From assembly GCF_056746865.1 (NCBI RefSeq), contig NZ_CM163382.1: DNA of 64,000 bases; one strand, written 5' to 3'. The position numbers and the translations under genes are program-made. The notes under the pieces were generated by a model. It was not told where the DNA came from and ran no database searches. It was given only the letters and a program-made list of their open reading frames with translations. Below are positions 1,463 to 55,382 of this stretch, piece after piece (position 1 is the stretch's first letter; each line of letters opens with the position of its first letter).

Positions 1463-1500
1463 CAACAACATCCTGCCTTCGTGCAGGATGTTGTTTTTGT
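1463..1500 (+). terminator. Rho-independent terminator after hcp
   Basis: Inverted repeat caacaacatcctgc / gcaggatgttgtt followed by a T-run. Confidence 0.6.
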
Positions 1501-7216: not shown

Positions 7217-8379
7217 AATTTTTTGTCGCTGATATTCCAGACAGGAAAACAATATGCCTTTAGCTGCCAGATTAAACGACAAAGGTACCGGCACAGGGAA
7301 AGATCACGTAACGCTGCTTTTTTGTACTAAATAATTCGCATTTTATGTTTAAAATTTGAGATATTCCTCATTACCTGAGGCTGTTTTTTATTACTTATAC
7401 ATGATCAAATACTCCTTACATAATTAAGGGGAACAAAATGGAACTTAAAAATTGATGGAACATATTTCTGTTATTCCCGATTACAGACAAGCCTGGAAAG
7501 TGGAACATAAATTGTCGGATATTCTACTGTTGACTATTTGTGCCGTTATTTCGGGTGCAGAAGGTTGGGAAGATATAGAGGATTTTGGGGAAACACATCT
7601 CGATTTTTTAAAACAATACGGTGATTTTGAAAATGGTATTCCTGTTCACGATACCATCGCCAGAGTTGTATCCTGTATCAGTCCTGCAAAATTTCACGAG
7701 TGCTTTATTAACTGGATGCGAGATTGCCATACTTCAGATGATAAAGACGTCATCGCAATTGATGGAAAAACGCTCCGGCACTCTTATGACAAGAGTCGCC
7801 GCAGGGGAGCGATTCATGTCATTAGTGCGTTCTCAACAATGCACAGCCTGGTCATCGGACAGATCAAGACGGATGAGAAAACCAATGAGATTACAGCTAT
7901 CCCAGAACTTCTTAACATGCTGGATATTAAAGGAAAAATCATCACAACTGATGCGATGGGTTGCCAGAAAGATATTGCAGAGAAGATACAAAAACAGGGC
8001 GGTGATTATTTATTCGCTGTAAAAGGAAATCAGGGGCGGCTTAATAAAGCCTTTGAGGAAAAATTCCCACTGAAAGAATTAAATAATCCAGAGCATGACA
8101 GTTACGCAATGAGTGAAAAGAGTCACGGCAGAGAAGAAATCCGTCTTCATATTGTTTGCGATGTCCCTGATGAACTTATTGATTTCACGTTTGAATGGAA
8201 AGGACTGAAGAAATTATGCGTGGCAGTCTCCTTTCGGTCCATAATAGCAGAACAAAAGAAAGAGCCAGAAATGACGGTCAGATATTATATCAGTTCTGCT
8301 GATTTAACCGCAGAGAAGTTCGCCACAGCAATCCGAAACCACTGGCACGTGGAGAATAAGCTGCACTGGCGTCTGGACG

Positions 8380-10270
8380 GTGTGCCGCAGGAACACAAGA
8401 TAGCTGCATAAGGATACGCAGTTAGCTTTTGTATAAGCTCATAAAGAGATGGTGGAAGGCCCACCGGGATCGGCTGTCGGAAGCAGATTCCAAACCACTT
8501 CATGCTGCTGTGGTAAAGAGCCATGGTAGTGAGCGATGAAGTAAAGCGTGAGTGAAAACTCAGCAGGTAAGATACTCATGAGACGAGTGAACCCGAACCC
8601 ATGTTGACGCGTCGTAAACCAGAGACTGACATCAAAACCGAAGGGGCGTCCAGCCTTCGGGATAAGTCTGCGAGTGAATTCCGAATGCTGCGCAGACGGT
8701 GTCCGGCGTAAAGTGGGCGTGACGGAGTATCAGGCTCTTCCTGGGAACTGCGGGAACCTGTCGTTGTGATGATAAGGGAGAAATGCAAGTCACTGAATTG
8801 GCGAGCATGAAAGTACCGATGCACAGCACAGGGACGGAGCCGTTCGTAGTAGTGATGAAGCTTCTGTAATGGAGGTGGAGCGAAGGGGCGGCATCAGACA
8901 GTCTTTGGACAGTGTTCAACTGAACATGTTCAGGAGGAGACAATGACAAAGACAAAAGCGTTTAACATTGATAAGTCACTGGTGGTCAGCGCGTACAGGC
9001 GAGTGAAGACCAGTGCAGGCGCGGCGGGAATTGATAAGCAATCGCTGGCGGACTTTGATAAACGGTTAGTTGATAATCTGTACAAAATCTGGAACCGACT
9101 TTCTTCAGGAAGTTATTTCCCACCGGCAGTGAAAGCGGTGGCAATTCCGAAGAAATTGGGTGGAGAGAGAATTCTGGGTATCCCGACAGTCAGCGATCGT
9201 ATCGCGCAGACGGTGGTAAAACTGGCCTTTGAGCCACAGGTTGAGCCACATTTTCTGGCAGACTCTTACGGCTACAGACCGAATAAATCGGCACTGGATG
9301 CTATAGGGGTAACGCGTAAGCGTTGCTGGTATTACGACTGGGTACTGGAATTTGACATCAAAGGGCTGTTCGATAACATCCCGCACGAACTGATAATGAA
9401 AGCCGTGGACAAACACAATCCGGCCCGGTGGGTAAAATTGTATATACAGCGGTGGCTGACAGCGCCGATGGTGATGTCAGACGGAGAAGTCAGAGCACGA
9501 ACAATGGGAACGCCGCAGGGAGGTGTCATAAGTCCGTTGCTGGCAAACCTGTTCATGCATTATGTGTTTGATAAATGGCTGGCAAAATATTATCCGAAAG
9601 TGCCGTGGTATCGATATGCTGATGATGGCATTTTGCATTGTCACAGCGAAGCAGAAGCGACTGAAATGCGAGAAGTATTACGCAAAAGATTTAGCGAATG
9701 CGGACTGGAAATGCATCCGGAGAAAACGCGAGTTATCTACTGCAAAGATGGAAGCCGGAAGGGTGATTATGAACATACCATGTTCGACTTTCTGGGGTAC
9801 ACATTCAGGCGACGCGTAGTAAAGAACGTTAAGCGAAACAGTCTGTTTGTAAGTTTTACCCCCGCAGCGAGCAAATCAGCGCTAAAGGCAATGCGTCGGG
9901 AAATCAAAGCGACAGGGATAAGGAAAAGAGTGGATTTAAGCATTGAGCAGATAGCGAAATGGATAAATCCAAAACTGAATGGCTGGATAAATTATTACGG
10001 GCGATATACCTGTTCGGAATTATACAGCGTGTTCAGATATATCAATAAAGCACTGGTGAGGTGGGGGCGTAAGAAATATAAAATGCTCAGCCGATACAAG
10101 ACAAGAGCCTCAAAATTTCTGGAAGAAATGGCGAAGCGAAGTCCACAGTTGTTTGCCCACTGGCGTCTGAAGATGAGAGGCGGACTTGTTTGATGGGAGC
10201 GGTATGAGCCGAGAGGTTCACGTACCGTTCTGCGAGAGGCTGCGGGGGAGGTTCCTGCGGCCTACTCACC
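8380..10270 (+). mobile_element. Group II intron (bacterial, with RT/maturase ORF)
   Basis: Boundaries from aligning interrupted copy 1 to uninterrupted copy 2: shared …cgtctggacg | intron starts GTGTGCCG … ends …cctactcacc | tggtaatgaatg resumes. Domain V-like GAGCCG…CGTACCGTTC lies just after the RT stop. Confidence 0.7.
8943..10193 (+). CDS. Group II intron-encoded reverse transcriptase/maturase
   Basis: 416-aa ORF with RT motifs (…RYADDG… YADD box) and a maturase X-domain motif (NGWINYYG). Confidence 0.85.
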
Positions 10271-10493
10271 TGGTAATGAATGAAGACGACTGCAAAATAA
10301 GAAGAGGAAATGCAGCAGAATTATTTTCAGGGATACGGCACATCGCTATTAATATTTTGACGAATGATAAGGTATTCAAGGCAGGGTTAAGACGTAAGAT
10401 GCGAAAAGCAGCCATGGACAGAAACTATCTGGCGTCAGTCCTTGCGGGGTGCGGGCTTTCGTAATCTTTCCCTGGATGTGAAAAGCAGCTGCG

Positions 10494-11779
10494 GACAGGG
10501 AAAGATCATCAGAAGTACACTTTTTGTACTAAACAATTCGCATTTTATGTTTAAAAATTGAGATATTCCTCATTACCTGAAGCTGTTTTTTATTGCTTAT
10601 ACATGATCAAATACTCCTTACATAATTAAGGAGAACAAAATGGAACTTAAAAAATTGATGGAGCATATTTCTATTATCCCCGATTACAGACAAGCCTGGA
10701 AAGTGGAACATAAATTATCGGATATTCTACTGTTGACTATTTGTGCCGTTATTTCTGGTGCAGAAGGTTGGGAAGATATAGAGGATTTTGGGGAAACACA
10801 TCTCGATTTTTTGAAGCAATATGGTGATTTTGATAATGGTATTCCTGTTCACGATACCATTGCCAGAGTTGTATCCTGTATCAGTCCTGCAAAATTTCAC
10901 GAGTGCTTTATTAACTGGATGCGTGACTGCCATTCTTCAGATGATAAAGACGTCATTGCAATTGATGGAAAAACGCTCCGACACTCTTATGACAAGAGTC
11001 GCCGCAGGGGAGCGATTCATGTCATTAGTGCGTTCTCAACAATGCACAGCCTGGTCATCGGACAGATCAGGACGGATGAGAAATCTAATGAGATTACAGC
11101 TATCCCTGAACTTATTAACATGCTGGATATTAAAGGAAAAATCATCACAACTGATGCGATGGGTTGCCAGAAAGATATTGCAGAGAAGATACAAAAACAG
11201 GGAGGTGATTATTTATTCGCTGTAAAAGGAAACCAGGGGCGGCTAAATAAAGCCTTCGAGGAAAAATTTCTGCTGAAAGAATTAAATAATCCAGAGCATG
11301 ACAGTTACGCAATTAGTGAAAAGAGTCACGGCAGAGAAGAAATCCGTCTTCACATTGTTTGCGATGTCCCTGATGAACTTATTGATTTCACGTTTGAATG
11401 GAAAGGTCTGAAGAAATTATGCGTGGCAGTCTCCTTTCGGTCAATAATAGCAGAACAAAAGAAAGAGCCCGAAATGACGGTCAGATATTATATCAGTTCT
11501 GCTGATTTAACCGCAGAGAAGTTCGCCACAGCAATCCGAAACCACTGGCACGTGGAGAATAAGCTGCACTGGCGTCTGGACGTGGTAATGAATGAAGACG
11601 ACTGCAAAATAAGAAGAGGAAACGCAGCAGAATTATTTTCAGGGATACGGCACATTGCTATTAATATTTTGACGAATGATAAGGTATTCAAGGCAGGGTT
11701 AAGACGTAAGATGCGAAAAGCAGCCATGGACAGAAACTACCTGGCGTCAGTCCTTGCGGGGAGCGGGCTTTCGTAATCT
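10494..11779 (+). mobile_element. H-repeat (ISAs1-family) element copy 2, intact
   Basis: Left IR acagggaaagatca and right IR tcttgccctg; direct orientation, about 20 bp after copy 1. Confidence 0.75.
10640..11776 (+). CDS. H-repeat-associated ISAs1-family transposase
   Basis: 378-aa [35 protein letters not shown]… uninterrupted. Confidence 0.85.
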
Positions 11780-11895
11780 TGCCCTGGTACAGTAAACAAA
11801 CGAAAGTTGTTATTTCAATGGTCAGGGCAAGAGCATGAAGTGTTTACTACACACTATGCTCTTGTCCTGGAGTCAGGTCTTGTTTGGAGGGATAA

Positions 11896-12399
11896 ATGGT
11901 AGATATTGTCGAGGCCGATAAAACGGATATTTATTTCATTCAGGAGAGTGTTTATGGCAAAATCGGGTTGCCAGCTTTTGGTAATACAATAGGACCATCC
12001 GCACAGCAAGTTGTTAAAAAGGTATTCGCTGTCGTTAAAGAACGAGATAAGACACATGCAAAACAGAGATTATTGTTGGAATATAATGGTAACAAACTCT
12101 GGATGAATGCTATTGATGGCAGTGAAGCTATCCTACCAACAGAATTTTCTAAGCGATACGAACTTTCATTATTTAATACTACTAATTTTGGAGAAGATCC
12201 TTTTCCTGATGTTAATTTATATAATAATATGAAATCAAGTTTTTTTGTAAGGTTTGGTGGAACATCCCATCCCGAGGCTTGGGCTATTTATAATGCAAGT
12301 ACGAAAGAGGTTAAATATATAGAAACTGCAAGAGAAATTGATAAAATATTCAGTGATTTTAACTTGAGTGGTACATTGCCAATTCACATTGGTCGATGA
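11896..12399 (+). CDS. Hypothetical protein, AT-rich cargo
   Basis: 167-aa ORF in a low-GC segment between H-repeat elements; no recognisable motif. Confidence 0.35.
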   Translation: MVDIVEADKTDIYFIQESVYGKIGLPAFGNTIGPSAQQVVKKVFAVVKERDKTHAKQRLLLEYNGNKLWMNAIDGSEAILPTEFSKRYELSLFNTTNFGEDPFPDVNLYNNMKSSFFVRFGGTSHPEAWAIYNASTKEVKYIETAREIDKIFSDFNLSGTLPIHIGR

Positions 12400-12465
12400 T
12401 TTTTTAAATTGTGTGATTAAATAATTGAACATTAATGATGATTTATAGCATTATTATTCTATAAC

Positions 12466-12978
12466 ATGAATAAACGGATTGAATGTGTTATGTTAAAAAT
12501 AAGTTTATACGTAATAATATTGTTATTTTCCTTTCAGATTAGTGCAGCCATTACTAGCAAGGAAAGTGAGGTTGTTTCACCATTATTAATGGATGTTAAT
12601 TCTTCACTAACAATGGAAAATATTTCTGAATTATCCACATCATCGGAACCATCGCAACAGGGGGTATTTCCTGTAATATGTACTCGACTTCATCCTGGCT
12701 CCGTAATGAAACGCCAGTTATTAACCGGCTGGGGGCCTGTTTTTATAATTGGTGATGATCCTTTTTCTCTGCGCTGGATGAGTGAACATCTGGAGATCCT
12801 TAAATCGCTAAATGCCCTTGGTTTGGTTGTTAATGTTGAATCAGTAGAACGAATGGAGGTATTACAGCAGCGGGCTGATGGGTTATTGTTATTGCCAGTT
12901 ATCTGCGATAATTTCGTGCAAACTCTGCAATTAAATGCTTATCCGGTATTAATCACAGAGATGGAAATATCACAATGA
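12466..12978 (+). CDS. Hypothetical secreted/membrane protein
   Basis: 170-aa ORF with a hydrophobic N-terminal segment (ISLYVIILLFSFQISAAITS); low GC. Confidence 0.35.
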   Translation: MNKRIECVMLKISLYVIILLFSFQISAAITSKESEVVSPLLMDVNSSLTMENISELSTSSEPSQQGVFPVICTRLHPGSVMKRQLLTGWGPVFIIGDDPFSLRWMSEHLEILKSLNALGLVVNVESVERMEVLQQRADGLLLLPVICDNFVQTLQLNAYPVLITEMEISQ

Positions 12979-12994
12979 TTAATAACATAATTAC

Positions 12995-13215
12995 TGCAAA
13001 TAATATCGTAATTTTGAAAATGGTAATTCTGTTCACGGCACCATAATTAGAGTTATGTCTTGTATCCGTTCAGTATAATTTCACGAATGCTTTATTAACT
13101 GGATGCGAGATTGCCATTCATCAAATGATAAAGACGTCATCGCAATTGATGGAAAAGCGCTTCCACACTCCTATGATAAAAGTGGTCGCAGGGGAGCGGG
13201 CTTTCGTAGTCTTAG
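12995..13215 (+). pseudogene. Internally deleted H-repeat transposase remnant (position equivalent to K-12 yafF)
   Basis: Matches the ENGIPVH…[10 protein letters not shown]…SRRRGA segment, then jumps to the element 3' end (…ggagcgggctttcgtagtct…); junction at a short ggggagcg microhomology. Confidence 0.6.
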
Positions 13216-19927: not shown

Positions 19928-20686
19928 ATGTCCTTCATGTCTTCGTTCTTTCACGGCAGATTTCTGCATCCAGGCGTGTTTTCGTTATGCGTTTTGCTCC
20001 CTTTACTCGCCAGCGCCACCACATCACATATCTCTTTCAGCTACGCCGCCCGCCAGCGGATGCAAAACCGTGCGCGTTTATTAAAACAGTACCAAACCCA
20101 TCTGAAAAAACAGGCCAGCTATATTGTGGAAGGCAATGCCGAAAGCAGAAAGGCGCTGCGCCAGCACAACCGCGAACAGATAAAACAGCATCCAGAATGG
20201 TTTCCTGCGCCGCTCAAGGCGAGTGACAGACGCTGGCAGGCGCTGGCGGAGAACAACCATTTCTTAAGCAGCGACCATCTGCACAACATCACCGAAGTGG
20301 CGATTCACCGCCTGGAGCAGCAGCTTGGTAAGCCTTACGTCTGGGGCGGCACGCGGCCCGATCAAGGCTTCGACTGTAGCGGGTTGGTTTTTTATGCCTA
20401 CAACAAGATCCTCGAGGCGAAGCTCCCGCGCACGGCCAATGAGATGTATCACTACCATCGGGCAACGATTGTGGCGAATAACGACCTGCGCCGGGGAGAT
20501 TTGCTGTTTTTCCATATTCACAGCCGTGAGATTGCCGATCATATGGGCGTGTATCTGGGAGACGGTCAGTTTATCGAGTCGCCGCGCACCGGGGAAACCA
20601 TTCGGGTAAGTCGGTTAGCTGAACCTTTCTGGCAGGATCATTTTTTAGGCGCGCGCAGGATTTTGACGGAAGAGACGATTTTGTAG
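19928..20686 (+). CDS. yafL: NlpC/P60-family peptidoglycan endopeptidase YafL
   Basis: 252-aa ORF with signal peptide and NlpC/P60 signature (…GFDCSGLVFYAY…H…). Confidence 0.8.
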   Translation: MSFMSSFFHGRFLHPGVFSLCVLLPLLASATTSHISFSYAARQRMQNRARLLKQYQTHLKKQASYIVEGNAESRKALRQHNREQIKQHPEWFPAPLKASDRRWQALAENNHFLSSDHLHNITEVAIHRLEQQLGKPYVWGGTRPDQGFDCSGLVFYAYNKILEAKLPRTANEMYHYHRATIVANNDLRRGDLLFFHIHSREIADHMGVYLGDGQFIESPRTGETIRVSRLAEPFWQDHFLGARRILTEETIL

Positions 20687-20768
20687 GACGGATAAGGCGT
20701 TCACGCCGCATCCGGCAATAGTGCACCGATGCCTGATGCGACGCTGCCGCGTCTTATCATGCCTACGA
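20683..20768. repeat. REP element, overlaps the yafL stop codon
   Basis: gtaggacggataaggcgttcacgccgcatccggca… unit. Confidence 0.65.
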
Positions 20769-20862
20769 GTCTGCGAATTTTTTGCGAGCTGCTTTCCCGA
20801 TATAACACAACTTCATTGTCGACTTTTCCTTTTCTTCTTATCGTTGAGAAAAAGGAGTCGCC

Positions 20863-21360
20863 ATGTCTGAATATCGTCGTTATTACATCAAGGGGGGAAC
20901 ATGGTTTTTCACGGTAAATTTACGGAATCGTCGAAGCCAACTTTTGACCACCCAGTACCAGACACTCCGTAACGCCATTATTAAAGTTAAGCAGGCCAGA
21001 CCTTTTGAAATTAACGCCTGGGTAGTTTTGCCAGAGCATATGCACTGTATCTGGACATTACCCGAAAGTGATGATGATTTTTCCTCTCGCTGGCGGGAGA
21101 TTAAAAAGCAGTTCACCCATGCTTGCGGATTGAAAAATATCTGGCAACCGCGTTTTTGGGAGCATGCCATTCGCAATACAAAAGATTATCGCCATCATGT
21201 TGATTATATTTATATAAATCCAGTGAAACATGGCTGGGTAAAGCAGGTGAGTGATTGGCCATTCTCAACGTTCCATCGCGATGTAGCGCGAGGGTTATAT
21301 CCCATTGATTGGGCGGGAGACATAACGGATTTTAGTGCCGGGGAGCGTATTATTTTATAA
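20863..21360 (+). CDS. rayT: REP-associated tyrosine transposase RayT (YafM)
   Basis: 165-aa ORF MSEYRRYYIKGGTWFFTVNLRNRR…; IS200/IS605-like HuH fold; flanked by REP elements. Confidence 0.85.
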   Translation: MSEYRRYYIKGGTWFFTVNLRNRRSQLLTTQYQTLRNAIIKVKQARPFEINAWVVLPEHMHCIWTLPESDDDFSSRWREIKKQFTHACGLKNIWQPRFWEHAIRNTKDYRHHVDYIYINPVKHGWVKQVSDWPFSTFHRDVARGLYPIDWAGDITDFSAGERIIL

Positions 21361-21363
21361 TTG

Positions 21364-21510
21364 TGCGCGGATGCCTGATGCGACGCAGGCGCGTCTTATC
21401 ATGCCTACAAACTTGTGCCGGATCGGTGGGCCGGATAAGGCGTTCACACCGCATCCGGCAATTGTGCACCGGTGCCTGATGCGACGCTGGCGCGTCTTAT
21501 CATGCCTACA
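21364..21510. repeat. REP/BIME array, left part (interrupted by IS)
   Basis: REP units ending …cgtcttatcatgcctaca immediately before the IS left inverted repeat. Confidence 0.7.
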
Positions 21511-23050
<1,540 letters not shown>

Positions 23051-23059: not shown

Positions 23060-25153
23060 TCAACTCAACGCCCCCATAATCTTCAACTCCAGCTCATCCG
23101 GCACTTCGTTATACGACAGCACATGCAGACCCGGCGCAAACAACCTTGCATAACGCGCCAGCAAAGGACGCAGCTGCGGCGGCACCAGCAGCACAGGGGC
23201 TTTCCCCGCTGCTTTCATCTGCTCCTTCACCTGCGGCATCGTACTCTGGAACTGGTTGAGCATATTCGGGTCAACCGGCACGCTGTCGAGCATCACTTTG
23301 CCGGCCTGTTGCGCCTGATTCACCACATTGGTCAGCAGATTTTCCAGCTCATTATTCAGCGTATACACCGTCAGCTCCTGTTTGCGAACGAACGGATGGG
23401 TAATGCTGCGCCGCAGCGCCAGGCGCACATCGGCCGCCAGCAGAATATGATCTTTGGTCAATGTGCTACTGGCGACCAGCACAGTGGCGATGGTGACGAT
23501 ATCGCGCAGGGAAACGCCTTCGGTCAGTAATGCACGGTACACTTTCAGCAACTGGCTGTAATTGAGCGCTGCGCTCAAATCTTCCGCCAGTCGCGGTGCC
23601 ATCGACGACAAACGATTATGCAACTGCGTAATATCGTCATAGTTAAATAAATCAGGAATATAGCTGCGCACAATCTTATTCACATGGGTGGCAATCACGC
23701 TGGCGCTGTCGATCACCTGATACCCCATATTCAGCGCCTTCGCTTTCTGCGCGGGCTGGATCCAGGTCACCGGCATCCCGTACGCCGGGTCGTTCCCCAG
23801 CACGCCGTCAATCTCGCCGTAGGTTTCGCTGGAGGGCAGGGCCATCAGTTTATCCGCCGGAATATCCGCTTCATCAGCCTTAATGCCATTGATGAAAATG
23901 GCGTACTGGCTGGGCTTGAGGCGGAAGTTTTCCCGAATACGGATCTCCGGCAGCAGCACGCCGTTGCCGTCGGAAATCACCTGCCGCACGCCGCGAATCC
24001 GCTGGGTGAGCGGGTTACCTTGGGCTTTATCGACTAGCGCCACCAGCTTGTAGCCGAGGCTTAAGCTGATGGGCTCGATCAGCGGAATGGTTTCCCAACT
24101 GACCTGTTGCTCGCTGGTTTCGGTGATGGTTCGGGTCAGCGTTTCGAGGCTTTTCTCCTCCGCCTCCGCCGCCTGCGGGCGTTTGCTCATCCGCCAGCCG
24201 GTAAAGCCAAGCAGGGCGCTGAACAGCAAAAATGGCAGATGCGGCATCCCCGGCACCACCGCCAGCACAAACATGATCCCGGTGGCGGTGTAGAGCACCG
24301 ACGGGCTTGCCAGCAGCTGGTGGCGCACGTCATGGGCGATATCGCCGTTGTCGCTGACGCGGGTGACGATAATTGCCGCTGCGGTGGAGAGCAGCAGGGA
24401 CGGGATCTGCGCCACCAGCCCGTCGCCGATGGTCATCAGCACATACTGCTGGAAGGCGGCGTCGGCGCTCAGGTTGTATTTGAAGATGCCGATACAGACG
24501 CCGCCGATCAGGTTGATCGCCAGAATCATCATCCCGGCGATGGCGTCCCCGCGCACAAACTTCGATGCCCCGTCCATCGCGCCGTAGAAATCGGCCTCGC
24601 TGGCAACATCTTTACGCCGGGTTTGCGCCTGCGCCTGGTTGATCAACCCAGCGTTAAGATCGGCGTCAATCGCCATCTGTTTACCGGGCATCGCGTCTAA
24701 GGTAAAGCGGGCAGAAACCTCGGAAATACGCTCGGCCCCTTTGGTGACGACGATAAAGTTGATGATCATCAGGATGATAAACACCACAAAGCCGACGACA
24801 AAGTTGCCGCCAATCACCACCTGACCAAATGACTCAATTACCTTACCCGCCGCGCCCGCGCCGAGATGCCCGTGCAGCAACACCACGCGCGTAGAAGCAA
24901 CGTTGAGCGTCAGGCGCATTAAGGTGGTGATCAGCAAAATGGTCGGGAACAGGCTGAATTCCAGCGGCCTTTTCGCTGACACCGCCACCAGCAGTACCAT
25001 CACCGCCAGCACAATGTTGAAGGTGAACAGAATATCCAGCAGCGCAGGCGGCAGCGGCAAAATAACCATCGCCAGAATACACAGGATCACCAGCGGCACG
25101 CCGAGATTGCCGCCGCGCAGTAGCGCGAGGAACGATTTAGTTGTTTTCGCCAT
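23060..25153 (-). CDS. lfhA: Flag-2 flagellar export apparatus protein FlhA homolog
   Basis: 697-aa ORF with FlhA N-terminal TM region and C-terminal cytoplasmic domain. Confidence 0.9.
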   Translation of the reverse strand: MAKTTKSFLALLRGGNLGVPLVILCILAMVILPLPPALLDILFTFNIVLAVMVLLVAVSAKRPLEFSLFPTILLITTLMRLTLNVASTRVVLLHGHLGAGAAGKVIESFGQVVIGGNFVVGFVVFIILMIINFIVVTKGAERISEVSARFTLDAMPGKQMAIDADLNAGLINQAQAQTRRKDVASEADFYGAMDGASKFVRGDAIAGMMILAINLIGGVCIGIFKYNLSADAAFQQYVLMTIGDGLVAQIPSLLLSTAAAIIVTRVSDNGDIAHDVRHQLLASPSVLYTATGIMFVLAVVPGMPHLPFLLFSALLGFTGWRMSKRPQAAEAEEKSLETLTRTITETSEQQVSWETIPLIEPISLSLGYKLVALVDKAQGNPLTQRIRGVRQVISDGNGVLLPEIRIRENFRLKPSQYAIFINGIKADEADIPADKLMALPSSETYGEIDGVLGNDPAYGMPVTWIQPAQKAKALNMGYQVIDSASVIATHVNKIVRSYIPDLFNYDDITQLHNRLSSMAPRLAEDLSAALNYSQLLKVYRALLTEGVSLRDIVTIATVLVASSTLTKDHILLAADVRLALRRSITHPFVRKQELTVYTLNNELENLLTNVVNQAQQAGKVMLDSVPVDPNMLNQFQSTMPQVKEQMKAAGKAPVLLVPPQLRPLLARYARLFAPGLHVLSYNEVPDELELKIMGALS

Positions 25154-29289: not shown

Positions 29290-29440
29290 GGCTTACTTTC
29301 TCTGCTGTAATGGTATGGGTGTTTCTGTGCACGCAAATCCGGCTGTGACACAAGGTGAGGTATTAAATAGAGGGGGAGTGAAAGGGGCAAATTATTAATA
29401 GGGTGAAGATATAATTAAATTATTAATGGGTGATATATCA

Positions 29441-29552
<112 letters not shown>

Positions 29553-36594: not shown

Positions 36595-36698
36595 ATGTTT
36601 AAAAAATCGCGTTTTTTCGACATATCCCCAAAACATGTCGATGGCATAAACGTATTCCAACGACATGTTTAAAAATCGCATTTTATCGACATATCCCT
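36595..36698. repeat. Two copies of a ~35-bp direct repeat between convergent genes
   Basis: atgtttaaaaaatcgcgttttttcgacatatcccc (36595..36629) and atgtttaaaaatcgcattttatcgacatatccc (36665..36698). Confidence 0.6.
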
Positions 36699-39154
36699 GA
36701 CGATTCCTTGCCCGCCAGCGCCTCCACAATCACCATCGCCGCCCGTTCTCCCGCCTTGCCATCCATAAACGCATCGCAATAGTGATGACGAATCTCCTTA
36801 AGCCGCGCCAGCAACGCACCCCAGTCAAACGCCTCTGACAACAAATAACGCAGTTCCGCAACATCATGAGCCACCGGCAATATTTCGCGGATTTGCTGGT
36901 CGGCGCTTTCGGGCGTGGAGTAACTTTTCTCACCGTCGAGCAACGCTGCCATTTCCGGAAAGTCGAGCAGGATTACCCGCTTATCAACGTGGATAGCATC
37001 GAAAATAAAGCCGCTGTTATCGGTCAGCACGTAATCGGCCTTTGCCAGTAGCGCCAGCGTGTGGTGGACGGAGTCGGTGCGCTGTTTTAAGTGCCTGCGC
37101 GCCAGGGCCAGCGATGCAGCTTCTTCCGGGCGCGAGCAGGTGCCGTGGTGCAGTTTGCAAATCAGATTCACATTGCCACTTAAGCGCCCCAATTTTTCTG
37201 CCCAGTGGGGCAGGGAGCTTAATGCGCCAAACGTGGGGGCGTAGAGCACCGTAGGTTTACGGGAATCGGGTTGAATATTTTCTGGCAGAATGCGGTCAAA
37301 CGTGCCGTTATGCCAGGCGTCGAAGCGCGGGTTGCCGACTGCTTTTGCATTGCCGAAATGCGCCAGCGCCCGCTGGCTGTAGTGGCTGTAACACAAAATG
37401 CGTTGATAAAAACGGTTCCAGTCGGCGTGGTTCCACGTCTCTTTGGCTAAGCCATACATGGCGCGAACGTTCACCGCTGCCAGGCCATTGAGCGCGGGCG
37501 TGTGGTAGGGGCTGACCAGGCATTTCACCCGCTGACCGTGTGCCTGCATTTCAGATAAGCGCATTCCTTTGAGCTGCGGATCGTCGATGCTTTTTAGCGT
37601 CTCCAGCATTTCATCCAGAAACGGTTTAAACACGCGGTCGTTGATCACCAGCGTGCAGCCTTGCCCCTGCGCCTGTAGGGCGGTGATGATTGGGCGGTAG
37701 AGCGCGTAATGGAAAGAAGTTTCCATAAAAAAGCCGATGGTGTCGGCGATGGGTAACGCGGATGGCTTTGTGATAGCAGGTAACTTATTGAAATAGTGAG
37801 CAATATTATCAGTCATTTTTTTCTCGATATCGCTAAAGCCTGGTCGCTGATAACTAAGGCTCGGGTAACAGGCCAGCCATTTGTCGGCGCGTAGCAGCGG
37901 CTGCCAGCCGTCTTCCAGCGAATGCTCATCGTTGCTCATCTGCTGCGCCAGTTGCGGGTAGTAGCGGCGGTTCACCAGATAAGCGCATACCTTGCGGCAG
38001 TCCCGCGCGTGCACCAGCCCCGGCAAACTTTTTAGCATCGTTCCCTGCGAAATTTCGCCGCCGAGGATCATCACCTGCCAGGGAATTTTCGCCAGGCTCG
38101 CCAGCAGCGTGTTCAGCACCTGAATATGTTTCTCCTGCTTGAGAATAACCGCGTCATCTTCCAGCAGCAGATAGTTTTGCCAGCCGTGCTGTTGCGCCAG
38201 GCGCAGCGCCTGCAAGTGCGACTGACGTCGTCCCCGTTGGCCGTTTTGATCTTCACTGGCGGCAAGGCGGGTGATCTTCTCAGGTGGAATATGCAGCAAT
38301 GCCAGTTCTTCACGGATCTGTTGTAAGCGATCCGGGCGTTTATCCAGATTCACAACAACTACCTGATCGATCGTCTGATGGTTGATCCCTTGGTGATGAG
38401 TGGCGTTATGTAGACTCAGATAAGCATTGCGCAGCAGCGGATCGCTGACGATATCTGTAAGCGCCGCGTTTACAGGCGTGCTGGCCCCGAGAATAAAGTC
38501 TTTATCAAAGGTGTTGTGGCTGTGCGAGATACACAGAATCGTGCGCTCGCCGGGCAGTTGTAGCGGGTTAACGCTGAAATTGTCGGTGAAACTTTTCTCT
38601 TCGCCTAAATTGCAATCATCGTCGTAACGGTGCTTTTTCAGGTAGTTACGGTGATAGCAAAAGGTGCCGTTGAGGATGTTATGTGGGCCAAAGCTGCGGC
38701 TTTGAAAGATGCGATTGATGTGGCTGTACCAGATGGGGATCTGGTCGGAGCCGGAGATGAGCGCCCGGTGTTTTTGCATCTTGGCGATGGTCCAGGAGAT
38801 TTTATCTGCCGGGTAGTAGTCGTCATCGTCCATGCAGAGGATGTATTCGCCGCGCGCCAGTTCGTTGAGCATATTGCGTTTTTTGCCCAGCGGCAGTTTT
38901 TCCGGGTGATGAATATAGCGGATGTTAAAGGCTTCCGGCGTGCCATTGGTCAGGCGGTCGATGATGTGTTGATGGCTTTGCGGGGAATCGTCGAGGATGA
39001 TGAGTTCGCGGCGGTCTGCCGGGTAGTCCTGATAGCGGTACATATAAAGCAGGTACGGCAGGAATGCGCTGCGGTTCCAGGTTGGCGTGACGACGCTGAT
39101 GAACGGTTTTTCGCGCTGGGTGGCGAGTGTTTTGATAATGGTTGGTGTTGGCAT
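36683..39154 (-). CDS. Multidomain transferase: GT2 + GT25-like + TagF-like CDP-glycerol glycerophosphotransferase
   Basis: ORF 36683..39226; start taken at MPTPTIIKTL (39154) because the upstream extension translates a GC-rich repeat. N-term GT2 (VVTPTWNR…ILDDSP…MDDDDYY), middle GT25-like (VVVNLDKRPDRL), C-term TagF-like (VLYAPTFG…KLHHG…LTDNSGFIFDA). Confidence 0.75.
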   Translation of the reverse strand: MPTPTIIKTLATQREKPFISVVTPTWNRSAFLPYLLYMYRYQDYPADRRELIILDDSPQSHQHIIDRLTNGTPEAFNIRYIHHPEKLPLGKKRNMLNELARGEYILCMDDDDYYPADKISWTIAKMQKHRALISGSDQIPIWYSHINRIFQSRSFGPHNILNGTFCYHRNYLKKHRYDDDCNLGEEKSFTDNFSVNPLQLPGERTILCISHSHNTFDKDFILGASTPVNAALTDIVSDPLLRNAYLSLHNATHHQGINHQTIDQVVVVNLDKRPDRLQQIREELALLHIPPEKITRLAASEDQNGQRGRRQSHLQALRLAQQHGWQNYLLLEDDAVILKQEKHIQVLNTLLASLAKIPWQVMILGGEISQGTMLKSLPGLVHARDCRKVCAYLVNRRYYPQLAQQMSNDEHSLEDGWQPLLRADKWLACYPSLSYQRPGFSDIEKKMTDNIAHYFNKLPAITKPSALPIADTIGFFMETSFHYALYRPIITALQAQGQGCTLVINDRVFKPFLDEMLETLKSIDDPQLKGMRLSEMQAHGQRVKCLVSPYHTPALNGLAAVNVRAMYGLAKETWNHADWNRFYQRILCYSHYSQRALAHFGNAKAVGNPRFDAWHNGTFDRILPENIQPDSRKPTVLYAPTFGALSSLPHWAEKLGRLSGNVNLICKLHHGTCSRPEEAASLALARRHLKQRTDSVHHTLALLAKADYVLTDNSGFIFDAIHVDKRVILLDFPEMAALLDGEKSYSTPESADQQIREILPVAHDVAELRYLLSEAFDWGALLARLKEIRHHYCDAFMDGKAGERAAMVIVEALAGKESSGICR

Positions 39155-39197
39155 GGTGTTTGGGTGAGTTAATGGGTGAATGTGATGAATGTGCGTG

Positions 39198-39315
39198 CTG
39201 ATGCCCTCACCCCGACCCTCTCCCACAGGGAGAGGGAGAAAACCAGCGCTGATTTTAACACCGTGCTCGATCGGTTCCCTCGCCCCTTTGGGGAGAGGGG
39301 TAGGGGGAGGGGAAA
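39198..39315. repeat. GC-rich palindromic intergenic repeat (boxC-like; name uncertain)
   Basis: ctgatgccctcaccccgaccctctcccacagggagaggg … cccctttggggagaggggtagggggagggg; related copy at 46549..46668. Confidence 0.6.
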
Positions 39316-39332
39316 AGCGCGCACAGAGCGAC

Positions 39333-40262
39333 TCACGTCAGCAGCGAAAACGCTGAAAGCAGCGGCTCTGCCGCACATAACGACTGAATTTGCTGGCGAA
39401 TCGACGCAGCATTTTCACTCTCTCGCCAGCGTTCAAACACCGCAAAAAGGGCGAAAATATCCTCCTGTCGCAGCGGTGAACCATCCAGCGTCCATAAACT
39501 GATTAACGTGCGGATAAGATAAAAATCGCACACCAGCGGGCAATAATCTGCTCCGTCTGCCTGCCCAATCACCTCATGGTAAACGCGGTAAATCAGCCAG
39601 TTACGCATCATCCAGGGCGCGGTAGCAAAATGCTGTTGCCAGGTGGTTTGCCACTGTGCCTGAAGCTGATGTTGTAACAGGGCTTCGCTGTTGGCGTCAT
39701 GTAGCGCCAGCAAAGGCATCTGCAACGGCAGCGAAGTTTTGCGCGGGCTTTCCGGCAAAATCGACCAGTCAAACGCACAACTGCCGAGCAGCGTCATCAA
39801 CTGGCGCGCCAGTTGTGGCACGGGCGGCAACTGGGCGAACTGTGCCTGTAGCGTGCCTTTTTTCGCATGATCGGCCAGCGCCTGCGGCAGCGTCGTCAAA
39901 CGGGCAAGAATATCTCCGTCTCTGCCCGGCATTTTACTGGCGCGGGAGAGTAAAATCCCGATGGCATACAGGGAAAGCTCTGGGGTTAAATCGGGGAGCG
40001 TGAGGGTACTCAAAATCACCTGGTTTACTATCGCATCGCGCGCGGAAAGCTCTGCGGCATTTTCTTCCACAGGACGGTAGGTGAGCTGTAAATCAAAGGC
40101 CCTGGCATCGTTGAGTACCGCTTCGCAGCTGGCTGGCTCTGTCAGCATCAGGCTCTGGCGAATCTCGTTTTTCCACACCTTGCGGATGTACAAAGGCGAA
40201 TCGGGATATTGCGTCATAAAATTGCGCACGTATTCCGGTTCGTAACATTCAATAAAACTCAT
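39333..40262 (-). CDS. Hypothetical protein in the lfgA–lfgM–lfgN transcription unit
   Basis: ORF 39333..40301; probable start MSFIECYEPEYV at 40262 preceded by GGAAG. No recognisable motif. Confidence 0.45.
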   Translation of the reverse strand: MSFIECYEPEYVRNFMTQYPDSPLYIRKVWKNEIRQSLMLTEPASCEAVLNDARAFDLQLTYRPVEENAAELSARDAIVNQVILSTLTLPDLTPELSLYAIGILLSRASKMPGRDGDILARLTTLPQALADHAKKGTLQAQFAQLPPVPQLARQLMTLLGSCAFDWSILPESPRKTSLPLQMPLLALHDANSEALLQHQLQAQWQTTWQQHFATAPWMMRNWLIYRVYHEVIGQADGADYCPLVCDFYLIRTLISLWTLDGSPLRQEDIFALFAVFERWRESENAASIRQQIQSLCAAEPLLSAFSLLT

Positions 40263-43499: not shown

Positions 43500-43597
43500 C
43501 CAAATTGCCTGATGCGCTTCGCTTATCAGGCCTACATGAAACTGCATGGTTTTGTAGGCCGGATAAGGCGTTCACGCCGCATCCGGCAAAACAACGG
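43500..43597. repeat. REP elements between lfgD and lfgE
   Basis: gcctgatgcg…cttatcaggcctaca … gtaggccggataaggcgttcacgccgcatccggca. Confidence 0.65.
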
Positions 43598-44836: not shown

Positions 44837-45573
44837 TGGACCGTTTGATTTATACCGCCCTGAGCGGTGCTTCTCAGACCCTGTACGAGCAGCAGATCAG
44901 CGCCAACAACCTGGCGAACGTCAACACCAACGGTTTTCGCGCCGATATGGCAATGGCAACCAACGACAAGGTGAAAGGCGGCGGCTTCGACACGCGCTAT
45001 ATGGCGCAGGAAGGGGCCAGCGGCGTGAACGACAGCACAGGTGTTGCGGAGAAAACCGAACGCCCGCTGGACGTGGCGATTCAGGGCGCGGGTTACATTG
45101 CGGTGCAGGATAAAAACGGCAACGAAGTCTATACCCGCAACGGCAACATTCAGCAGGATGACCAGGGGCAACTGACCATCGACGGCAATCTGGTGCTGGG
45201 GGATAACGGCCCGATCATTCTGCCGCCGAACGCCATTGCTTCGTTTGGCAGCGACGGCACGCTGTCGGTGACGCCCGATGACGGCGACGTGACTGCAACC
45301 ATGGATATCGACCGCCTGAAGCTGGTGGATATTCCTGTCGCTAACCTGGCGAAAAATCCTGAAGGGATGCTGATAACTGCCGACGGCGTTCCGGCCCAGC
45401 GCGATGAAAATATCAAAGTCAGTGGCGGTTTTCTCGAAGGCAGCAACGTCTCGGCGGTGAGCGAGATGATGTCGTCCATCGCCATGAACCGCCAGTTTGA
45501 AGCGCAGATCAAGATGATGAAAACCGCCGAAGATATCAGCGACGCGGGCAACCGCTTATTGCGCGGCTCGTAA
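44836..45573 (+). CDS. lfgF: Flagellar proximal rod protein FlgF homolog
   Basis: 245-aa ORF with rod N-terminal motif (…ANNLANVNTNGFRA…). Confidence 0.85.
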   Translation: MDRLIYTALSGASQTLYEQQISANNLANVNTNGFRADMAMATNDKVKGGGFDTRYMAQEGASGVNDSTGVAEKTERPLDVAIQGAGYIAVQDKNGNEVYTRNGNIQQDDQGQLTIDGNLVLGDNGPIILPPNAIASFGSDGTLSVTPDDGDVTATMDIDRLKLVDIPVANLAKNPEGMLITADGVPAQRDENIKVSGGFLEGSNVSAVSEMMSSIAMNRQFEAQIKMMKTAEDISDAGNRLLRGS

Positions 45574-45579
45574 CCGCAC

Positions 45580-45718
<139 letters not shown>

Positions 45719-45751: not shown

Positions 45752-46537
45752 ATGAACGCAGCACTATGGATCAGCAAAACCGGCCTCTCGGCGCAGGATG
45801 CTGAAATGAGCGCGATTGCCAACAACATCGCCAACGTTAACACCACCGGCTTCAAGCGTGACCGGGTGATGTTTCAGGATCTGTTCTACCAGACCCAGGA
45901 AGCGCCGGGCGCGATGCTCGATCAGAACAACATCATGCCGACCGGGCTGCAATTCGGTAGCGGCGTGCGCATTGTCGGCACCCAGAAAACCTTCACCGAA
46001 GGCAACGTCGAAACCACCGACAACGCCATGAATGTCGCCATTATGGGGCAGGGGTTTTTGCAGGTGCAAAAGGCCAACGGCGATATCGCCTATACCCGCG
46101 ACGGCAACTTGCAGGTGAACGCCGACGGCGTACTGACCAACTCGCAGGGCTTGCCGTTGCAGCCGGAAATCGACGTTCCGGCGGGGGCGACCAACGTCGC
46201 GTTTGGCGAGGACGGCACGGTGACGGCGATCTTACCCGGCGACAGCGATGTGACCGAGTTAGGGCAACTGACACTGGTGAACTTCGCCAACCCAGCGGGG
46301 CTTTCTGCCGAGGGCGACAACCTGTATCTGGAAACCGCCGCCAGCGGTCAGCCGACCGAAGGTGTGCCGGGCGAAGATGGGCTTGGCACCTTGCAGGACA
46401 ACGCGCTCGAAGGCTCGAACGTGGATATCGTCAACGAAATGGTGGCGATGATTACGGTGCAACGCGCGTACGAGATGAACGCCAAAATGGTGTCGGCAGC
46501 GGACGATATGTTGCAGTACATCAGCCAGACGCTGTAA
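45752..46537 (+). CDS. lfgG: Flagellar distal rod protein FlgG homolog
   Basis: Start MNAALWISKTGLSAQD… within ORF 45626..46537 (the upstream extension translates REP sequence); 261 aa. Confidence 0.9.
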   Translation: MNAALWISKTGLSAQDAEMSAIANNIANVNTTGFKRDRVMFQDLFYQTQEAPGAMLDQNNIMPTGLQFGSGVRIVGTQKTFTEGNVETTDNAMNVAIMGQGFLQVQKANGDIAYTRDGNLQVNADGVLTNSQGLPLQPEIDVPAGATNVAFGEDGTVTAILPGDSDVTELGQLTLVNFANPAGLSAEGDNLYLETAASGQPTEGVPGEDGLGTLQDNALEGSNVDIVNEMVAMITVQRAYEMNAKMVSAADDMLQYISQTL

Positions 46538-46548
46538 GGGAGTGGGGG

Positions 46549-46668
46549 CAACGTGCGGTCTGATGCCCTCACCCCGGCCCTCTCCCACAGGGAGAGGGGG
46601 AAAAGCGGTGCACGATGTAACAACGCGCACAGGTCAGTCCCCTCTCCCTTGAGGGAGAGGGTTAGGGT
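46549..46668. repeat. GC-rich palindromic intergenic repeat (same family as 39198..39315)
   Basis: ctgatgccctcaccccggccctctcccacagggagaggg … cccctctcccttgagggagagggttagggtgaggggg. Confidence 0.6.
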
Positions 46669-46743
46669 GAGGGGGAACAAACAGCTCCGCACCCACTAAA
46701 CAACCGGCCACCCCCGTGGCCTGCAACACTAAACAGGCAGAAC

Positions 46744-47409
46744 GTGAAAAATTATCTCTGGCTGGTGGCGCTGCTTCCACTCCTTAGCGGGTGTGAATCA
46801 CAGGCCATTCTGGTCAAAAAAGACGACGCATACTTTGCGCCACCCAAAACCGAAGCGCCGCCTCCGGCAGACGGGCGTGCCGGGGGCGTGTTTGAAACTG
46901 GCTACAACTGGTCGCTAACCGCCGACCGGCGGGCTTACCGCGTGGGCGATATCCTGACGGTGATCCTCGAAGAATCTACCCAGTCGAGCAAACAGGCGAA
47001 AACCAACTTCGGCAAAAACAACACCGTCGATATCGGCGCGCCGACCATTTTTGGTCACACCAAAGATAAGCTTTCCGGCTCTATCGACGCCAACCGCGAC
47101 TTTGACGGCAGCGCCACTTCCCAGCAGCAGAACAGCCTGCGCGGGGAGATCACCGTTTCCGTCCATGCGGTGCAGCCCAACGGCATTCTGGAAATTCGCG
47201 GCGAAAAATGGCTCACCCTCAACCAGGGTGATGAGTACATCCGCTTAAGCGGCCTGGTGCGCGCCGACGATATCCAGAACGACAACTCGGTTTCCTCCCA
47301 GCGGATCGCCGACGCCCGCATTTCCTATGCCGGACGCGGCGCGTTAAGCGACGCCAACGCCGCAGGCTGGCTGACGCGGTTGTTTAACCATCCTCTGTTC
47401 CCGATTTAA
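46744..47409 (+). CDS. lfgH: Flagellar L-ring lipoprotein FlgH homolog
   Basis: 221-aa ORF with lipoprotein signal (LLPLLSGC) and FlgH-like content. Confidence 0.9.
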
Positions 47410-48835: not shown

Positions 48836-48933
48836 CGGTGCCTGATGCGACGCTGGCGCGTCTTATCAGGCCTACGAGTCGCCCGTATGTAGGCCGGATA
48901 AGGCGTTCACGCCGCATCCGGCACCCGGTTTAC
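48836..48933. repeat. REP elements between lfgJ and lfgK
   Basis: cctgatgcgacgctggcgcgtcttatcaggcctac … gtaggccggataaggcgttcacgccgcatccggca. Confidence 0.7.
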
Positions 48934-52385: not shown

Positions 52386-52730
52386 ATGATGTGGGACGTC
52401 GAGACAACGGAGACTTTCGACAACTGGTTTGATGCCCAGACTGTTGCGCTGAAAGAAGATTTACTTGCTGCAATGCTGATTCTTGCTGAGTATGGCCCAC
52501 AGTTGGGCAGACCCTTTGCGGATACGGTTAATGATTCACAGTTTTCAAATATGAAAGAATTACGCGTCCAACATCAGGGAAACCCGGTACGTGCTTTTTT
52601 TGCTTTCGATCCTGCGCGCCGTGGCATTGTATTATGTGCGGGTGATAAAACGGGGTTAAATGAGAAAAAGTTTTATCGCGATATGATCAAGCTCGCTGAT
52701 TCTGAATACCGTAAGCATCTGAAAAAGTAA
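52386..52730 (+). CDS. Type II toxin, RelE/ParE superfamily (HigB-like)
   Basis: 114-aa ORF MMWDVETTETFDNWFDAQ…GNPVRAFFAFDPARRGIVLCAGDKTG…, the toxin class usually encoded upstream of an HTH antitoxin. Confidence 0.7.
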   Translation: MMWDVETTETFDNWFDAQTVALKEDLLAAMLILAEYGPQLGRPFADTVNDSQFSNMKELRVQHQGNPVRAFFAFDPARRGIVLCAGDKTGLNEKKFYRDMIKLADSEYRKHLKK

Positions 52731-52739
52731 GGAACGATA

Positions 52740-53039
52740 ATGGCTACTCTAAAAGAACTGATGGCAAAGCAAAGCCCTGAAAGCCAGGTGCGTATTGCGG
52801 CAAAAGTTGAGGAAATGCGCCAGACCATCGCCTTGCATCAGCTGAGAGAAGAACTCAATATTTCGCAAACGGAAATGGCGGCAGCGATGGGCATTAAGCA
52901 ACCGACTCTTGCAAAAATGGAGCAGGCAGATAACGATCCTCGGTTGTCTACGCTAAAACGCTATGTTGCGGCTTTAGGTGGGGAATTGAGTATCGACGTT
53001 AAACTGCCGAATGGTAAGAGAATTGCATTTCAGATTTAA
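52740..53039 (+). CDS. HTH (XRE-family) antitoxin, HigA-like
   Basis: 99-aa ORF 10 bp after the toxin; HTH segment LNISQTEMAAAMGIKQPTLAKME. Confidence 0.7.
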   Translation: MATLKELMAKQSPESQVRIAAKVEEMRQTIALHQLREELNISQTEMAAAMGIKQPTLAKMEQADNDPRLSTLKRYVAALGGELSIDVKLPNGKRIAFQI

Positions 53040-55339: not shown

Positions 55340-55382
55340 TGGCGGACTTGCCGATGCGGCGTAAACGCCTTATCCGGCCACG

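Follow-up and report, generated by a model that had tools for sequence, protein, structure and literature searches.

BoxC doublets in an Escherichia coli Flag-2 locus: optional intergenic passengers with a candidate link to DUF559 nuclease genes

REPINs are doublets of repetitive extragenic palindromic (REP) sequences that form hairpins and occur with RAYT transposases (Bertels and Rainey). BoxC, another palindromic repeat of Escherichia coli, has come to light anew on four occasions since 1991, under the names BoxC, PIT and TMECO and as a G-quadruplex motif, and none of them yielded an origin or a function. According to Holder et al. (2015, PMC4666352), a single motif carries three names: BoxC (1991-92; Leung 1991, Bergler 1992), PIT or potential intrastrand triplex (2000/2002; Hoyne and Maher 2000/2002), both as cited in that paper, and TMECO; a 2015 preprint came upon the TMECO motif again as a putative G-quadruplex/hairpin switch. 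The original K-12 record comprises 33 BoxC copies of ~56 bp (51-59 bp), besides the intergenic repeat unit IRU (127 bp) and RSA (150/151 bp, 6 copies) (PMC5172473). Here, we examine two GC-rich palindromic elements, site A and site B, in a 64,000-nucleotide stretch of contig NZ_CM163382.1 (assembly GCF_056746865.1), referred to throughout as the window, which carries the Flag-2 lateral-flagellar locus, is identical in sequence to E. coli strain 118UI and has an flgG matching that of strain 042. As judged from their sequence, both sites are paired-form copies of BoxC, an already known repeat. Overall, we consider it probable (about 0.72) that the Flag-2 sites are BoxC doublets, that they are optional passengers, and that they are REPIN-like or MITE-like (miniature inverted-repeat transposable element) relatives of units linked to DUF559 genes. 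The repeat family itself is not new; what the present analysis contributes is a testable hypothesis for the origin of BoxC.

The pattern that defines the TMECO, CCCTCNCCC-N3-6-GGGNGAGGG-N3-GGGNGAGGG (Holder et al. 2015, PMC4666352), is matched exactly at four places in the window, where none is expected, and the matches fall two to a site on opposite strands: 39204-39236 (minus) and 39277-39311 (plus) at site A, 46566-46598 (minus) and 46640-46673 (plus) at site B. Set beside the 23 K-12 copies in Table 1 of the same paper, the left module of site A is identical to TMECO no. 20, the left module of site B is identical to nos. 1 and 4, and the right module of site B equals no. 2 but for its last base; the right module of site A departs from no. 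7 by two T>G changes. Pairs in K-12 always join a type A module (second loop TTA) to a type B module (second loop CCG) on opposite strands (PMC4666352), and the same pairing is found in the window, as CCG (minus) with TTA (plus) at site B and as TCG (minus) with GTA (plus), variants of B and A, at site A. The Flag-2 modules share with BoxC/PIT/TMECO the defining pattern, an intergenic location, multi-copy dispersal, the inverted A/B pairing and surroundings that vary between strains, and nothing essential sets the Flag-2 sites apart as anything other than members, the two T>G changes in the right arm of site A weakening its triplex potential. With respect to layout, one of the five K-12 pairs (lldD-trmL) is arranged like those of Flag-2, whereas the other four are reversed and have spacers of 16-27 nt.

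Comparison with the published E. coli repeat families yields the name BoxC, by way of the TMECO pattern and the K-12 copies; the original 56-bp BoxC annotation is probably equivalent, going by what Holder et al. state and by the presence of a copy at fabI/envM, the place of the first BoxC sighting. RSA measures 150/151 bp as against ~135 bp for the sites, every part of which is accounted for by BoxC modules. Enterobacterial repetitive intergenic consensus (ERIC) elements, the IRU of the older record, were considered and rejected: the ERIC2 core, in the form of the primer sequence, has no match in the whole window at <=3 mismatches. No Rfam family covers site A or site B, and the only models to respond were sub-threshold microRNA models, which are chance matches.

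The initial annotation had described the two sites as copies of a GC-rich palindromic repeat family lying between genes, and in this it was right. The family is genuine and dispersed, the two sites align over ~150 columns at 83% mean column identity, and both are intergenic by the list of open reading frames (ORFs) and the RefSeq annotation. The shared string reported then, ctgatgccctcaccccg(a/g)ccctctcccacagggagaggg, is present at both places, as ctgatgccctcaccccgaccctctcccacagggagaggg at 39198-39236 (site A) and as ctgatgccctcaccccggccctctcccacagggagaggg at 46560-46598 (site B). A repeat search of the window groups the sites as family D10, and the motif CCCTCTCCC-N2-8-GGGAGAGGG occurs three times in the window versus not once in 100 shuffles. 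The second palindrome that had been read at both sites is perfect at site B (46640-46661) but imperfect at site A (CCCTCGCCCC TTT GGGGAGAGGG, 39277-39299), and the extents first assigned marked the right places but need slight enlargement, the true units spanning ~39191-39324 and ~46553-46675.

Both sites are built alike: first a 34-nt minus-strand module, then a spacer of 40-41 nt, then a plus-strand module of 35-36 nt. In these Flag-2-type doublets the hairpins stand beside the spacer, leaving the third blocks (CCCTCACCC / GGGTGAGGG) on the outside. In alignments, the best-preserved doublets reach ~135 bp through short inverted flanks (GTGCG.GC / GTGCGCGC ... GCGCGCAC). The alignment of site A with the copy between phnK and phnL extends from GTGCG.GC to GCGCGCAC, and these terminal flanks pair in the predicted fold. 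At the position of the right module of site A, strain BR1220 carries the canonical GGGTTAGGGTGAGGGG. The parts of the two sites are as follows.

39191..39324, no strand assigned: site A, complete BoxC doublet of ~134 bp, aligned with site B and with the phnK-phnL, yhjE-yhjG and K-12 lldD-trmL copies
39191..39198, plus strand: left terminal flank of site A, GTGCGTGC, an inverted repeat of the right flank (alignment with phnK-phnL)
39203..39236, minus strand: left module of site A, type-B-like, second loop TCG, CCCTCTCCCTGTGGGAGAGGGTCGGGGTGAGGGC (pattern match)
39237..39276, no strand assigned: 40-nt spacer of site A, conserved among E. coli doublets, GAGAAAAC..GCGC..TTTAACACCG.GC..ATCGGT (multiple and pairwise alignments)
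39277..39312, plus strand: right module of site A, type A, with one stem mismatch and two T>G changes, CCCTCGCCCCTTTGGGGAGAGGGGTAGGGGGAGGGG (pattern match)
39317..39324, plus strand: right terminal flank of site A, GCGCGCAC (alignments)
46553..46675, no strand assigned: site B, BoxC doublet between flgG (lfgG) and flgH (lfgH) (alignments)
46565..46598, minus strand: left module of site B, type B, second loop CCG, CCCTCTCCCTGTGGGAGAGGGCCGGGGTGAGGGC (pattern match)
46599..46639, no strand assigned: 41-nt spacer of site B (alignments)
46640..46674, plus strand: right module of site B, type A, second loop TTA, CCCTCTCCCTTGAGGGAGAGGGTTAGGGTGAGGGG (pattern match)

A search of complete E. coli genomes showed the repeat to be multi-copy and dispersed, with BoxC matches in 4,560 of 5,426 genomes at a median of 7 places per genome. 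Some E. coli strains have full-length relatives of the doublet, spacer included, at phnK-phnL and yhjE-yhjG, and the K-12 lldD-trmL doublet has the same arrangement with a longer spacer. The coding flanks of the Flag-2 sites were found in 1,274 (site A) and 1,278 (site B) of the 5,426 genomes; the doublet itself occupies site A in 746 of the Flag-2-positive genomes and site B in 192, being missing or replaced in 42% and 85%, respectively. In the sequence type 131 (ST131) strain EC958, for example, the site A element is absent and the gap measures merely 46 bp. Because many Flag-2-positive strains have the doublets absent or replaced, Flag-2 can do without them: they are dispensable, optional non-coding passengers in intercistronic gaps.

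The alleles that take the place of the doublets differ as whole cassettes. When five site B alleles were aligned between the conserved CTGTAAGG and AAACAGGCAGAACG, the entire stretch from 46540 to 46730 was found to differ, which delimits one further feature.

46540..46730, no strand assigned: allele-specific cassette of site B, consisting of the doublet and a 55-nt tail with a small hairpin, GGCCACCCCCGTGGCC (five alleles aligned)

The alternatives at site B are one REP in strains MS20645 and CP66-6, REPs in KL53 and a 1.5-fold expanded doublet in LA3. A REP pair forms the alternative allele at phnK-phnL, and yhjE-yhjG has four alleles, namely the doublet, an expanded doublet, REPs and an empty one; the last is truly empty, but the doublet allele at this locus additionally lacks the neighbouring terminator hairpin. 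Whole-cassette replacement of this kind suggests that the doublets may have arrived by recombination or gene conversion rather than by cut-and-paste insertion. The turnover agrees with the excess of 'intergenic changes' around TMECOs reported by Holder et al. (PMC4666352). A side observation concerns the same yhjE-yhjG alleles (L011 / L014 / L015 / L016): the terminator-like hairpin GCCGGATGTCAGACATCCGGC that the doublet allele lacks is kept by the REP and empty alleles, the doublet having taken the place of the convergent-gene terminator instead of being added to it.

To look beyond E. coli, the Flag-2-type doublet pattern was scanned over one genome per species and retrieved at least 120 stretches; the scan was designed for the Flag-2-type arrangement, and neither its 38:2 ratio of arrangements nor its list of taxa is a census. 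Among the matches listed, one Pseudomonas genome has 27 loci and Mitsuaria has 24, and further taxa are Polaromonas, Methylobacillus, Gemmobacter, Caulobacter, Archangium, Chloroflexi, Terriglobia, Elusimicrobia and Enterobacter. Second loops differ between the arms in 37 of the 38 Flag-2-type doublets with two complete arms, again among the matches listed. In Pseudomonas sp. EaCA-3 the whole doublet, including the spacer, is conserved among 13 copies, the signature of a copied unit. Superficieibacter electus (L101-L103) presents a different picture, with tandem arrays of single BoxC-like modules at a period of 74-86 bp, unlike the dispersed doublets elsewhere.

Clustering of the ORFs over the 120 listed stretches brought out one unexpected recurrent family, DUF559 (Pfam E 1e-35 to 1e-50), represented at eight loci in seven unrelated taxa; at six of these loci the gene directly adjoins BoxC modules. 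Because these first loci had been picked for BoxC, a separate test was run on a DUF559-selected sample of 80 metagenomic loci (L140-L219), chosen solely by two DUF559 peptide patterns from a four-sequence alignment, a first DUF559 alignment having been too diverse to give search patterns. An exact BoxC hairpin lies <=200 bp upstream of the DUF559 gene at 38 of the 80 loci and <=200 bp downstream at 47; 35 loci have one on both sides and 50 on at least one side, and a full three-block module is adjacent to the gene at 36. Within 200 bp of the DUF559 genes there are 99 hairpins in 30.4 kb (3.25 per kb), as against 3 in 113.9 kb (0.03 per kb) beyond, making the density near the genes ~120 times that further out. 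The association of YcjD-type DUF559 genes with BoxC modules and doublets is strong and specific.

Of the modules upstream of the gene, 14 of 16 lie on its own strand, and of those downstream, 24 of 31 lie on the opposite one; the second loop tends to be YTA upstream (8 of 16) and YYG downstream (17 of 31), an arm-type tendency for which no rule is claimed. A typical unit spans 400-460 bp and consists of a module, a start codon within the following 0-25 nt and an ORF of 115-125 aa, the C-terminus of which ('PSPxPSP') reads in compact units into the inverted downstream module. At two loci (L165 and L197) the layout is doublet-gene-doublet, and the doublets have exactly the architecture of those in Flag-2. 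A variant repeat family (CCCTCCCCC / GGGGGAGGG, third block GGGGTGGGG) likewise flanks DUF559 genes at L146 and L214, and the flanking doublets of L146 have an arm order opposite to the Flag-2 type.

E. coli K-12 has one YcjD-type gene, ycjD itself, located beside fabI, where BoxC was first noticed. The C-terminus of its product (...RRSPSP) runs into a degenerate BoxC hairpin, and a fragment of a second DUF559 3' end, together with TMECO no. 9, follows on the 3' side (2196-2761 of the K-12 locus L139). The gene is single-copy and was found in 3,377 of the 5,426 E. coli genomes. Its distribution in a 2026 paper covers phylogroups A, B1 and C, other lineages having the eef operon at that position. 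Strains of phylogroups A and B1 have 23-29 TMECOs according to the counts of Holder et al., versus one in the B2 strain IHE3034 (PMC4666352). That the TMECO count tracks the phylogroups carrying ycjD is suggestive, and it is confounded by phylogeny. The searchable literature yielded no report linking DUF559 or YcjD to BoxC, which is not proof of novelty.

These layouts invite comparison with the described mobile repeats. As in the REPIN/RAYT system, BoxC is found as an inverted doublet of a short palindromic repeat, with one long predicted hairpin and many dispersed intergenic copies, and the associated gene is single-copy and can itself be flanked by doublets (L165, L197). The two systems differ in that the BoxC-linked gene encodes a Vsr-like PD-(D/E)XK nuclease of the DUF559 family and not a Y1 HUH transposase, in that the BoxC repeat is unrelated in sequence to REP, and in that BoxC mobilisation is a candidate process. 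With MITEs such as ERIC/IRU and Correia elements, BoxC has in common a small, non-coding, intergenic and often co-transcribed form, terminal inverted repeats and presence/absence polymorphism; in contrast to MITEs, the BoxC alleles at four loci show no target-site duplication and are cassette replacements, and BoxC has no known parental insertion sequence with a recognised transposase. DUF559 belongs to the Vsr clade of PD-(D/E)XK nucleases, which includes the homing endonuclease I-Bth0305I (PMC3424549). By analogy, DUF559 genes resemble those of the Vsr-fold homing endonucleases in appearing to be small, selfish nuclease genes of the same fold, but they have no intron or intein context and no defined target site.

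Read in the light of the units just described, BoxC doublets may be non-autonomous, REPIN-like or MITE-like relatives of small units built from a YcjD-type DUF559 gene with BoxC modules or doublets on its flanks. Doublets of the Flag-2 type would correspond to the repeat units that flank DUF559 genes, much as REPINs flank RAYT genes, and the four reversed K-12 pairs look as though they could be module-gene-module units after loss of the gene. The DUF559 nuclease would be the best candidate enzyme for the spread or maintenance of BoxC; in E. coli this would be the product of single-copy ycjD, which is missing from many lineages. Nicking followed by gene conversion is a possible route and would fit cassette replacement without target duplication. 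A more far-reaching proposal, in which BoxC doublets are the non-autonomous partners of YcjD-family DUF559 nucleases in a second REPIN/RAYT-like system across many phyla, their hairpin or cruciform being recognised by the nuclease, is one that we advance tentatively and at somewhat less than even odds. Were it true, the two Flag-2 copies would be relics of the activity of a YcjD-family nuclease, and the 'instability' around TMECOs would reflect the turnover of mobile elements instead of damage caused by triplexes. The ~120-fold enrichment, the module-gene-module units and the doublet-gene-doublet layouts supply a testable candidate for the origin of BoxC, which in E. coli is YcjD.

Several points weigh against linking the doublets to DUF559 genes and to mobility. 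The DUF559 test loci are the closest relatives of a BoxC-derived query, and the result therefore holds for a subfamily and not for all DUF559 genes; association alone, moreover, does not tell whether the nuclease is the cognate enzyme or cargo, or whether the two share an insertion preference, and the binding, cutting or moving of BoxC DNA by a DUF559 protein is a putative activity. Lineages reported to lack ycjD (B2 and most of D and E; 2026 paper) still have some BoxC copies. No target-site duplication or clean empty site was found among the alleles at site A, site B, phnK-phnL and yhjE-yhjG. Comparison of E. coli doublets with those of Pseudomonas gave no significant similarity for the spacers (p 0.45-0.79) and a marginal result for the flanks (p 0.02-0.36); since the spacers are not significantly similar, shared architecture is claimed and not shared spacer ancestry. 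BoxC is rare on plasmids and phages, with matches in 94 of 72,556 plasmid records, several of those listed being records of 0.35-4.8 Mb, and in two Campylobacter phage records of 50,697, each of them partial, and Holder et al. reported no tie to known mobile elements (PMC4666352). Both phage genomes (MG065686.1 and MG065691.1) contain 55 bp with 89% identity to site A's right arm.

Among the alternatives to descent from DUF559-linked units, the one that fares best acts at the level of DNA: the G-rich strand would form a triplex or G-quadruplex, or the doublet a cruciform, which stalls replication and creates a rearrangement hotspot, perhaps as a source of adaptive variation (Holder et al.). 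Three of the four Flag-2 modules satisfy the triad rules of the purine motif and carry four G3 tracts, the right module of site A having one extra third-strand mismatch under these rules. Triplexes of the motif are stable in vitro, with a melting temperature (Tm) of 70-82 C and a polymerase stop, but in vivo no dimethyl sulfate (DMS) footprint was seen, and the duplex prevails once the complementary strand is present (PMC4666352); the DNA fold computed with ViennaRNA gives a Watson-Crick hairpin only. The G-quadruplex/hairpin switch proposed in the 2015 preprint and the several alleles at all four E. coli loci examined, agreeing with the published excess of intergenic changes, would both be in keeping with a structural hotspot. 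The alleles are, however, whole-cassette replacements, often by REP, and not local deletions, so that turnover of mobile repeats explains them equally well, and a purely structural model does not predict the conserved termini, the spacers conserved within a genome or the association with DUF559. We regard such a DNA-level cause as unlikely; the DUF559 link offers an alternative explanation for the published genomic instability at BoxC sites.

A second alternative, raised in the initial annotation, would make the doublets regulators of the Flag-2 operons at the RNA level, with the hairpin serving as an mRNA stabiliser, as a processing site for RNase III or RNase E, or as an insulator. Both doublets stand between co-directional genes and would be transcribed, as is apparent from their neighbours.

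36683..39154, minus strand: glycosyltransferase gene of the Flag-2 variable region, downstream of site A (RefSeq annotation of the identical strain 118UI)
39333..40262, minus strand: lafV-like gene, 'lysine-N-methylase' or 'hypothetical protein' depending on the record (RefSeq annotation)
45752..46537, plus strand: flgG (lfgG), its stop codon 15 nt ahead of the site B doublet (RefSeq annotation)
46744..47409, plus strand: flgH (lfgH), starting 68 nt past the site B doublet (RefSeq annotation)

At site A, both neighbours of which are on the minus strand, the stop codon of the lafV-like gene is 8 nt from the doublet and the ATG of the glycosyltransferase gene 36 nt from it. As RNA, either strand of each doublet is predicted to form one long hairpin, of -80 to -83 kcal/mol at site A (z -7.0 to -7.9) and -87 to -88 kcal/mol at site B (z -7.0 to -8.5), in which the difference between A and B modules leaves a 3x3 internal loop. 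The stability of this predicted hairpin is in favour of an RNA-level role, as are the precedents of Correia elements, which RNase III cleaves, and of ERIC, which uncovers a site for RNase E (review PMC10969869). In scans with promoter and terminator consensus sequences, the surroundings of both doublets were free of promoter-like sites, and none of the BoxC module hairpins carried a terminator-like one; the sole match inside a doublet falls in the site A spacer, where a weak 7-pair stem (3 G-C) precedes GTTTTCTCCC on the minus strand, giving a weak hairpin with a T-run on the transcribed strand. An intrinsic terminator was rejected as a candidate, the left hairpin being trailed on the plus strand by an A-run and not a T-run, and the module hairpins being free of terminator-like sites.

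Against regulation at the RNA level stand the frequency with which the elements are absent or replaced in Flag-2-positive genomes, given above for the two sites, the opposite orientations of the two sites relative to transcription and the published assays: as Holder et al. summarise them, Hoyne and Maher (2002) detected neither promoter nor terminator activity, and earlier experiments saw no influence on RNA polymerase and none in vivo (PMC4666352). The idea of an insulator or mRNA stabiliser is unsupported because the published tests found neither promoter nor terminator activity; the module hairpins match no terminator, and many strains have no copies. We hold an RNA-level regulatory role to be distinctly improbable. 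The doublets would share the transcripts of the flanking genes and would form in them a single long hairpin of high stability; neither promoter nor terminator function is to be expected of them, and any influence on mRNA processing or stability would be modest at most. They are passengers, probably transcribed as a stable intercistronic hairpin. For Flag-2 itself they are of low importance and are not to be read as regulators.

A third possibility is that the sites are variants of REP or of bacterial interspersed mosaic elements (BIMEs), mobilised by the RayT transposase encoded in the same window. A rayT gene with flanking REPs does lie at 20863-21360, several intergenic slots hold REPs in some alleles and BoxC doublets in others, and both repeats are found as inverted doublets; yet BoxC has no sequence similarity to REP, as judged from the repeat families and the Rfam naRNA4 model, and a RayT search of 984 kb around the 120 BoxC doublets listed returned a single homologue, which lacks flanking modules. 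The statement in the initial annotation that the sites are distinct from the REP units of the window is correct, since the two form separate repeat families and the Rfam naRNA4/REP model matches the REPs and not sites A and B. Membership in REP/BIME was rejected as a candidate identity, the REP consensus palindrome (GCCGGATG...CATCCGGC type), which RayT recognises, not being present in the two sites, and mobilisation by RayT is very improbable. Finally, the reading that the likeness of the two sites is a chance by-product of G+C-rich sequence, to which the low complexity of the blocks (G3NGAG3) lends itself, is negligible in view of the 0 matches expected from shuffles against 3-4 observed, the 83% identity over ~150 nt with the spacer included, and the homologous copies in thousands of genomes.

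Apart from its bearing on origin, the BoxC doublet at site A has a practical consequence for annotation. The mechanical ORF of the glycosyltransferase, 36683..39226 (minus strand, 847 aa), was suspected at the outset of carrying a spurious N-terminal extension of 24 codons, and the RefSeq ATG at 39154 agrees with that suspicion.

39155..39226, minus strand: false 24-codon extension of the glycosyltransferase ORF (ORF list versus RefSeq start)

The GTG start of the extended ORF is formed by the loop of the hairpin in the left module of site A. Because one of them yields this false extension, the doublets are worth masking in gene calling.

The window contains several other repeats and mobile elements. 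The rayT (yafM) gene, encoding a REP-associated tyrosine transposase, lies beside Flag-2 with REP clusters on both sides (20648-20773 and 21325-21516), and an IS3-family element, ISEc31 (21519-22732), is inserted between rayT and lfhA/flhA (23060-25153). REP/BIME units occupy many Flag-2 intercistronic gaps (29437-29545, 43519-43589, 45548-45718, 48839-48924 and 55353-55379), and the naRNA4 model of Rfam gives the unit at 45586-45662 a score of 78 bits. In 7319-13213, direct repeats as long as ~300 bp with 96-97% identity (families D4, D5, D7 and D8) are copies of ISAs1/ISEc1, one of which is broken by a group II intron (ltrA, 8943-10193); just upstream, at 1-3576, is a partly decayed type VI secretion cluster (tssB, hcp and a truncated vgrG). 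Within Flag-2, genes for a RelE/ParE toxin and a helix-turn-helix antitoxin are found at 52389-53039, downstream of flgL and a hypothetical gene and ahead of a transcriptional regulator gene and lafA. Inside the lafV-like gene, at 40065-40153 on the minus strand, there is a sub-threshold Rfam match to the eukaryotic long non-coding RNA PVT1_3 (26.6 bits, E 0.0024), which is almost certainly due to chance.

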